NCBI RefSeq assembly: GCF_003334815.1 | Contig: NZ_QOWO01000023.1 | From: Escherichia coli | Lineage (GTDB): Bacteria > Pseudomonadota > Gammaproteobacteria > Enterobacterales > Enterobacteriaceae | Strand: one strand, 5' to 3' | Length of the DNA stretch: 64,000 nt | Shown: positions 63,410-64,000 of the stretch, in pieces | How the letters are laid out: each line of letters starts with the position of its first letter | Position numbering within the stretch: position 1 is the first letter of the stretch | Made by a program: the position numbers and the translations under genes | The notes under the pieces: model-generated | Seen by the model: the letters and a program-made list of their open reading frames with translations, nothing else | Database searches by the model: none | Told to the model about the DNA's origin: nothing

Positions 63410-63852
63410 TCAGAACGACCAGTTCACACCAGCCACCGCGTTCCACGGGGATTCCACACCGGCACCATGGCTATACCCCACCCCGAGATGTCCGCTAAAC
63501 GTACTGCTGAATGAGGCTTTAATAGCTGCCTGGTATATTCCACGTCTGCCCGACAAATCATTGACGAAATTACCGTCATTATTCACCTTCACCCGGTTAT
63601 CATCGACAAATTCTTTGCGCACAGCCGCCTTCAGCCAGGGTTCATTTCCATACCGTTCCCCAGGCGCATGTTGTAACTCAGCGTTGCACCCAGTTCACGA
63701 TATATACTGCGGGTATCGACTGATTTCGATTCCATGCCATTGGATAAATGATAGTAGCGTCTAAGTGACCTAAGCTCTGCTGCAACATCAGCCCGCAGGC
63801 ACCAGACCAGGGGATTCATCCTGAAGAGACAGCGCAGGTGTATTGTGTTCAC
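63410..63852 (-). pseudogene. ycgI: Autotransporter beta-domain remnant, frameshifted (ycgI-like pseudogene); may continue to the window end
   Basis: Two adjacent minus-strand ORF fragments in different frames (63410-63622 and 63631-63852); the 3' fragment ends in the autotransporter C-terminal signature ...GVNWSF. Confidence 0.55.
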
Positions 63853-64000
63853 CGCTCACCAAAGACATCATGATGAAATGATGATATCCCGCATAAGAAA
63901 GAGGCATTTTTTACACGCAGTGCGCTGATGAATCCCCTAATGATTTTGGTAAAAATCATTAAGTTAAGGTGGATACACATCTTGTCATATGATCAAATGG

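Follow-up and report, generated by a model that had tools for sequence, protein, structure and literature searches.

A C-terminal aromatic motif is a defining mark of the classical autotransporter family. In Escherichia coli, YpjA has been counted among the biofilm-forming autotransporter adhesins (PMC9289746), and ycgI has been named as a K-12 pseudogene that adjoins minE (PMC6206680). According to a review, modeling of YcgI gave a deformed or broken barrel (PMC7383365). Here, we analyzed a stretch of 64,000 nucleotides of E. coli DNA (contig NZ_QOWO01000023.1 of assembly GCF_003334815.1; hereafter the window), near the end of which a broken autotransporter gene lies next to minE. Given its position on the K-12 map, we take this element to be ycgI (b1173). 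The comparisons described below lead us to read positions 63410-63753, with a probability of about 0.95, as the K-12 pseudogene ycgI, an inert 3' remnant of a type Va, AIDA-I-type adhesin gene closely paralogous to ypjA/ehaD.

Results

Two minus-strand reading frames encode the end of an autotransporter barrel

The genes minC, minD, and minE lie on the plus strand of the window, and minE stops at 63038. Two short open reading frames (ORFs), in different frames and on the opposite strand to minE, lie 372 bp past this stop codon (Table 1). The original prediction, made from the letters of the window and a list of ORFs, took them to encode together the C-terminus of an autotransporter ending in GVNWSF, that is, a decayed, ycgI-like adhesin gene. 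The ORF list and a search with protein family profiles bear this out. NCBIfam TIGR01414 (autotransporter barrel) matched the lower ORF with E = 2.3e-9 and the upper ORF weakly (E = 0.057, residues 34-72 only). When the two were joined and the frame repaired, the same profile matched at positions 319-432 of 432 (E = 4.8e-21), and Pfam PF03797 matched at model positions 152-254 of 255 (E = 6.2e-10). The homology to autotransporters, which a profile search had been expected to reveal, is therefore far above chance level. What is covered is the C-terminal ~40% of the models, split by the frameshift, and hence less than a complete 12-strand barrel. The aromatic barrel-assembly motif (aromatic-X-Phe/Trp) is present, as the lower ORF ends in GVNWSF and a stop codon.

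Neither ORF coincides with the autotransporter-derived DNA, which is limited to 63410-63753, with none in 63853-64000. In the upper ORF, only the last 40 codons (63634-63753) belong to it, and the first 33 codons (63754-63852) arise by chance from reading through what used to be the 5' flank. In the lower frame, the autotransporter-homologous reading begins right after a 1-bp deletion at 63644.

The window is a K-12 derivative; it is 99.95% identical to strain MG1655 over its whole length and 100% identical to it from 63040 to 63928. In MG1655, the Prokaryotic Genome Annotation Pipeline (PGAP) annotates the same 344 bases (63410-63753) as an autotransporter barrel pseudogene that is "frameshifted; incomplete; missing N-terminus". 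The decayed adhesin gene is therefore ycgI itself and not merely a ycgI-like one. The marks of a pseudogene are found together here: homology to the family, an intact positional orthologue, and lesions that disable the gene.

Inactivation by a 3,047-bp deletion

The prediction had suggested looking for strains with an intact copy and using an alignment with intact orthologues to place the inactivating lesion, and both checks were productive. Strain GMF065 has an intact gene of 3,363 bp (1,120 amino acids [aa], WP_021552102.1) at the same site, between minE and ymgJ; strains EC17CM6 (WP_024186477.1) and MB53 also have an intact autotransporter there, so that the gene was intact in all three of the passenger-containing strains that were checked. 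The intact protein carries approximately eight AIDA repeats and a pertactin domain, together with a long Pro-Asn linker; its PF03797 barrel is complete (residues 859-1098), and its N-terminus, judged by eye, is an apparent signal peptide. PGAP labels the gene as YpjA/EhaD-like. It is the positional orthologue of ycgI, since the DNA on either side of it corresponds to that on either side of the K-12 junction, with 93.7% identity on the minE side (ten gapped positions) and 97.7% on the upstream side.

In a blastn comparison with this intact locus (L003), window positions 63040-63753 aligned with L003 9001-9708, and window positions 63753-63928 aligned with L003 12756-12931. Compared with the intact gene, the window copy lacks 3,047 bp, with the junction at 63753/63754, and has a 1-bp deletion in addition. 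The missing 3,047 bp comprise the start codon, codons 1-1006, and, ahead of them, 29 bp in which a GAGGA ribosome-binding site lies; their removal took away the signal peptide, the passenger, and ~60% of the barrel. The remnant begins at codon 1007 of 1120 and has no N-terminal Sec signal peptide; the start and the signal sequence lie inside the deleted segment. The passenger domain (AIDA repeats, PF16168; pertactin, PF03212), present in the intact orthologue, is absent from the window. Repeats or longer microhomology were sought at the deletion junction, and only 1 bp was found to be shared. The deletion probably arose by illegitimate recombination.

Alignments with intact and unshifted copies placed the second lesion, the 1-bp deletion that causes the frameshift, at 63644/63645. 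The frame break noticed in the original prediction is real, but its site is not the predicted interval 63622-63631, which is only the space that separates the two ORFs of the list.

We then compared these lesions among strains. The identical deletion junction is found in K-12, strain 1943, CFT073, G12, and FDAARGOS_944. Strains 1943 and G12 have the junction and no frameshift; CFT073 has the junction and another 1-bp deletion (CCAATGGCA to CCAAT-GCA); and FDAARGOS_944 has the junction and an extra 272-bp deletion between GTGAACTGG repeats. Since the junction is common to these strains and the later lesions differ, the large deletion came first, and the later decay was independent. These alignments show both the lesions and their order: the inactivating lesion is the 3,047-bp deletion, and the frameshift arose later, in already dead DNA.

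Three steps account for the locus as it stands in the window. The 3,047-bp deletion took the start region and codons 1-1006 and fused the last 114 codons to the old upstream region. In the K-12 lineage, the 1-bp deletion at 63644/63645 then split the remnant into two frames. In this strain, an IS10-type insertion sequence (IS) also lies 171 bp upstream of the junction, in ymgJ.

Alleles of the site across E. coli

We surveyed 5,426 complete E. coli genomes for the state of the site; lineages in which the match ends at 63753 under a large autotransporter gene were spotted in a spread sample of them. The 3,047-bp deletion junction, sought with a 100-bp probe, is present in 4,525 genomes (83%). 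The K-12-type 1-bp deletion is present in 1,703 (31%), as judged by a 40-mer probe in which every seed word spans the site. The deleted 3-kb segment is found at ≥95% identity in about 437 records (~8%); matches at 90-95% identity are the canonical ypjA at its other locus.

The remaining alleles differ in kind. E. coli O157:H7 (L002 9371-10117) has a longer, unshifted 3' fragment of 747 bp, directly next to an unrelated island that carries ompT and ISEc8; we estimate this truncation at roughly 7% of genomes from 4 of 60 evenly sampled rows. In 174 genomes (3%), alleles of the type of strain N17 among them, the junction probe had no match whatever. Strain N17 itself (L014 4055-4062) is without the segment equivalent to window positions 63095-64063 and has five unrelated bases instead, an allele that could be a deletion or the ancestral empty site. 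IS1 lies inside the equivalent of window positions 63040-63928 (889 bp) in at least six genomes, a further independent disruption. Collectively, the distribution of alleles points to repeated, independent loss at the minE-linked site across E. coli.

The original prediction had seen in this region both gain and loss of surface adhesins. Loss holds, by several independent routes, and the neighboring ycgH is also a pseudogene; gain is not shown. An intact ycgV was also predicted nearby, correctly: it is a 955-aa ORF at 31365-34232, identical to that of MG1655 and about 29 kb away.

We noted that ycgH, which in K-12 lies ~3.3 kb beyond the window end (L001 7030-9677), has a frameshift and an internal stop there, and that it is annotated as intact in GMF065, EC17CM6, and strain 1943. 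The GMF065 product is an 882-aa ECIAI39_1904 family autotransporter adhesin.

Paralogy with the ypjA locus

At the DNA level, the remnant matches the 3' ends of the intact minE-linked gene and of K-12 ypjA equally well (95.4% identity in each case). For the 171 bp on the upstream side of the junction, identity is 97.7% with the DNA upstream of the intact minE-linked gene and 94.2% with the DNA upstream of K-12 ypjA. Altogether, the stretch that is paralogous to the ypjA locus begins 10 bp beyond the stop codon and reaches ~355 bp above the junction. The ancestor of ycgI was therefore a paralogue of ypjA/ehaD.

The ~355 bp upstream of the lost gene are 89% identical to their paralogous counterpart upstream of ypjA (L009 5766-6121), and they cover a 39-aa ORF and ymgJ-like sequence. 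The duplicated unit thus took in a conserved 5' region as well.

An origin of ycgI as a piece of ycgH or ycgV was also considered and rejected, since its DNA shows no similarity to either.

Upstream and neighboring features

Homology to MG1655 ceases at 63928. The sequence from 63925 onward (CTGATGAATCCCCTAATG...) is base for base the end of an annotated ISVsa5-family copy, with the alignment running from CTGATGAATCC, and the 9 bp that precede this IS10-type end, a candidate target duplication, are CGCAGTGCG. The segment is multi-copy and occurs in 1,876 genomes, in as many as 45 places. In ymgJ, no IS was found at the corresponding site in any of the 5,426 complete genomes. The element could be a lone IS10 or one arm of Tn10. 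Positions 63925-64000 are thus not part of ycgI and represent a further disruption of the locus in this strain.

Two hairpins lie between minE and ycgI. On the minus strand, 15 bp past the ycgI stop codon, a perfect 9-bp stem at 63377-63395 (AAACTGCGC-TTCG-GCGCAGTTT) is followed by a T-rich tract; it stands outside the ypjA-paralogous segment and was not listed by a terminator scan. By its sequence and position, it may have served the ancestral gene as a terminator. On the plus strand, a strong terminator-like hairpin at 63314-63331 (CCCGCC-GTAA-CTGGCGGG, then CTTTTTTT) has no annotated MG1655 gene upstream of it, the minE terminator being a separate hairpin at 63063-63090.

Across window positions 411-63928, we counted 32 differences from MG1655. 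Outside the tyrT/rtT and ldr repeats, these are mostly scattered G:C to A:T transitions (for example, at 2433, 7142, 15062, 24125, 39439, and 49831). As a guess, such a pattern would fit a mutagenized laboratory lineage.

Table 1. Coordinates in the window of ycgI, its lesions, and the features upstream of it.
Feature	Position	Strand	Remarks
ycgI pseudogene proper	63410-63753	minus	Last 114 codons and stop codon of an AIDA-I-type autotransporter gene
Lower ORF	63410-63622	minus	70 aa, ends ...AGVNWSF and stop codon; GTG start as in the program-made ORF list
Upper ORF	63631-63852	minus	73 aa; from the ORF list
GVNWSF motif	63413-63430	minus	Stop codon at 63410-63412
Frameshift site	63644..63645	minus	Window ATGGAAA-TGAACC; unshifted alleles ATGGAAATTGAACC or ATGGAAGTTGAGCC
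Deletion junction	63753..63754	minus	Reads ...GACGCTACT / ATCATTTATCC...; 1 bp microhomology
Former upstream region of the lost gene	63754-63924	minus	From sequence comparison with the intact and ypjA upstream regions
39-aa annotated hypothetical ORF	63788-63907		Within the former upstream region
ymgJ, 3' part	from 63868		Within the former upstream region
IS10/ISVsa5-type (IS4 family) end, terminal 76 bp	63925-64000	plus	In ymgJ, cut by the window end
Partial RNA-OUT antisense RNA	63970-64000	minus	Rfam RF00240, E 2.8e-4; truncated by the window, 33.5 bits against a gathering threshold of 41

Discussion

ycgI is an ordinary, already annotated pseudogene. The product of the remnant lacks both signal peptide and passenger and has under half a barrel, and therefore it cannot be a working autotransporter; the remnant is also without a native translation start or ribosome-binding site, and its frame is broken. 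Judged from these features, it most likely does nothing. Some points weigh against our reading. The old upstream region, possibly with a promoter, survives beside the remnant, so that a transcript is possible. Synonymous versus non-synonymous differences, counted as a test for relaxed selection, number 16 versus 11 among remnant alleles and 11 versus 10 among functional alleles, which is no clear difference, in a comparison of few sequences with many shared polymorphisms. Moreover, intactness was examined in only 3 of the roughly 437 records that contain the passenger.

One alternative is that the remnant has been kept for a function, either as a short peptide that carries a barrel-assembly signal or as a transcript, convergent on minE, that affects the min operon and cell division. 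Its persistence in 83% of genomes and the retained upstream region would agree with this, and so would a filamentation screen in which enrichment extended from minCDE into the ycgI homologue, a possible effect on division (PMC6206680). The authors of that screen offered mere linkage to minCDE as an alternative for the ycgI enrichment (PMC6206680), and a small neutral remnant in core DNA can persist without any function. The variation among strains also speaks against a retained function: the frame is broken differently in K-12 and in CFT073, FDAARGOS_944 has deleted further, IS1 interrupts the segment in at least six genomes, O157:H7 has a differently truncated fragment instead, and strain N17 is without the remnant. 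A peptide would, in addition, have neither a signal peptide nor the native ribosome-binding site. A promoter scan of positions 63000-64000 found no sigma-70-like site, which counts against function, and an Rfam scan of positions 62700-64000 returned only two matches, the truncated RNA-OUT at the end of the IS and rsmX at chance level (E 0.7). We therefore regard a function as very unlikely. If there were one, the transcript or peptide could affect expression of the min operon or the assembly of outer-membrane proteins, and it would account for both the persistence in 83% of genomes and the signal in the filamentation screen.

The other alternatives concern how the gene was lost. It could be proposed that no deletion took place at all, that an upstream segment and a 3' end of ypjA were copied or converted into the site, and that the intact minE-linked genes are younger products of recombination with ypjA. 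It is plausible that gene conversion occurs between these loci, and the remnant is no closer to the intact minE-linked copy than to K-12 ypjA (95.4% in both cases). However, conversion would need two separate segments of ypjA to be joined exactly where a single deletion suffices; the gene that is intact beside minE stands apart from ypjA as a paralogue of its own (1,120 versus 1,526 aa, with 86-94% DNA identity in pieces); the 171 bp upstream are nearer to the intact minE-linked allele than to ypjA (97.7% versus 94.2%); and the fragment that O157:H7 carries at this site comes from the same gene but is longer and truncated in another way. This scenario is thus highly unlikely. The original prediction had suggested extending the window to recover the passenger, which implies that the frameshift alone inactivated the gene. 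If the frameshift were the sole lesion, the passenger would lie upstream, past the window end, and two adjacent ORFs in different frames are indeed the only lesion that is visible without a comparison. Homology to the intact gene nevertheless ends at 63753, and what follows corresponds to DNA that lies 29 bp ahead of the start codon in the intact gene. What lies beyond is the old upstream region and the IS10-type end in the window, and ymgJ, ymgI, ymgG, and ymgD in MG1655, with no passenger there. The alignment at the junction refutes a hidden passenger, which leaves this alternative with almost no probability; the inactivating lesion is the deletion, and the frameshift is secondary. It is more improbable still, to the point of being negligible, that the frame break is an error of sequencing or assembly. 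Single-base insertions or deletions are a common type of sequencing error, and nothing else favors such an error. The exact 40-mer across the 1-bp deletion occurs in 1,703 of the 5,426 genomes, independently assembled and including many K-12 assemblies, so the break is genuine, as the original prediction had it; even an unshifted copy would be a gene without its first 1,006 codons.

We thus return to ycgI as a probably inert remnant left by a 3,047-bp deletion. Little is at stake in this conclusion, as the pseudogene has long been annotated in K-12. What the analysis adds is the exact lesions, the identity of the ancestor (with a full-length segment in ~8% of genomes), and the repeated, apparently independent loss. 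The locus provides a tidy case of the decay of an adhesin gene in core DNA, and it warns against regarding YcgI as a protein of the outer membrane.

How does this locus compare with the described systems? The solved 12-strand barrel of the BrkA translocator (PDB 3QQ2) can be aligned with that of the intact orthologue over the full length (E 2.8e-24), and the remnant covers about the last 114 of the 284 residues. Judged by this share of the BrkA barrel, it would amount to approximately the last 5 of 12 strands. BrkA and Vag8 (PDB 7AKV) are distant, being from other species and with other passengers, and they serve as a structural yardstick only. YpjA/EhaD (K-12 b2647) is much closer, but it lies at another chromosomal locus, beside the CP4-57 element; its 1,526 aa compare with 1,120 aa for the intact minE-linked paralogue, with passenger DNA that is 86-94% identical in pieces. 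The closest system is ycgI (b1173) of MG1655, with which the window shares the same sequence, strand, position between minE and ymgJ, frameshift, and N-terminal truncation. The pseudogene itself is without any difference, and the IS10-type element 171 bp upstream of the junction is lacking in MG1655 and in all 5,426 complete genomes.
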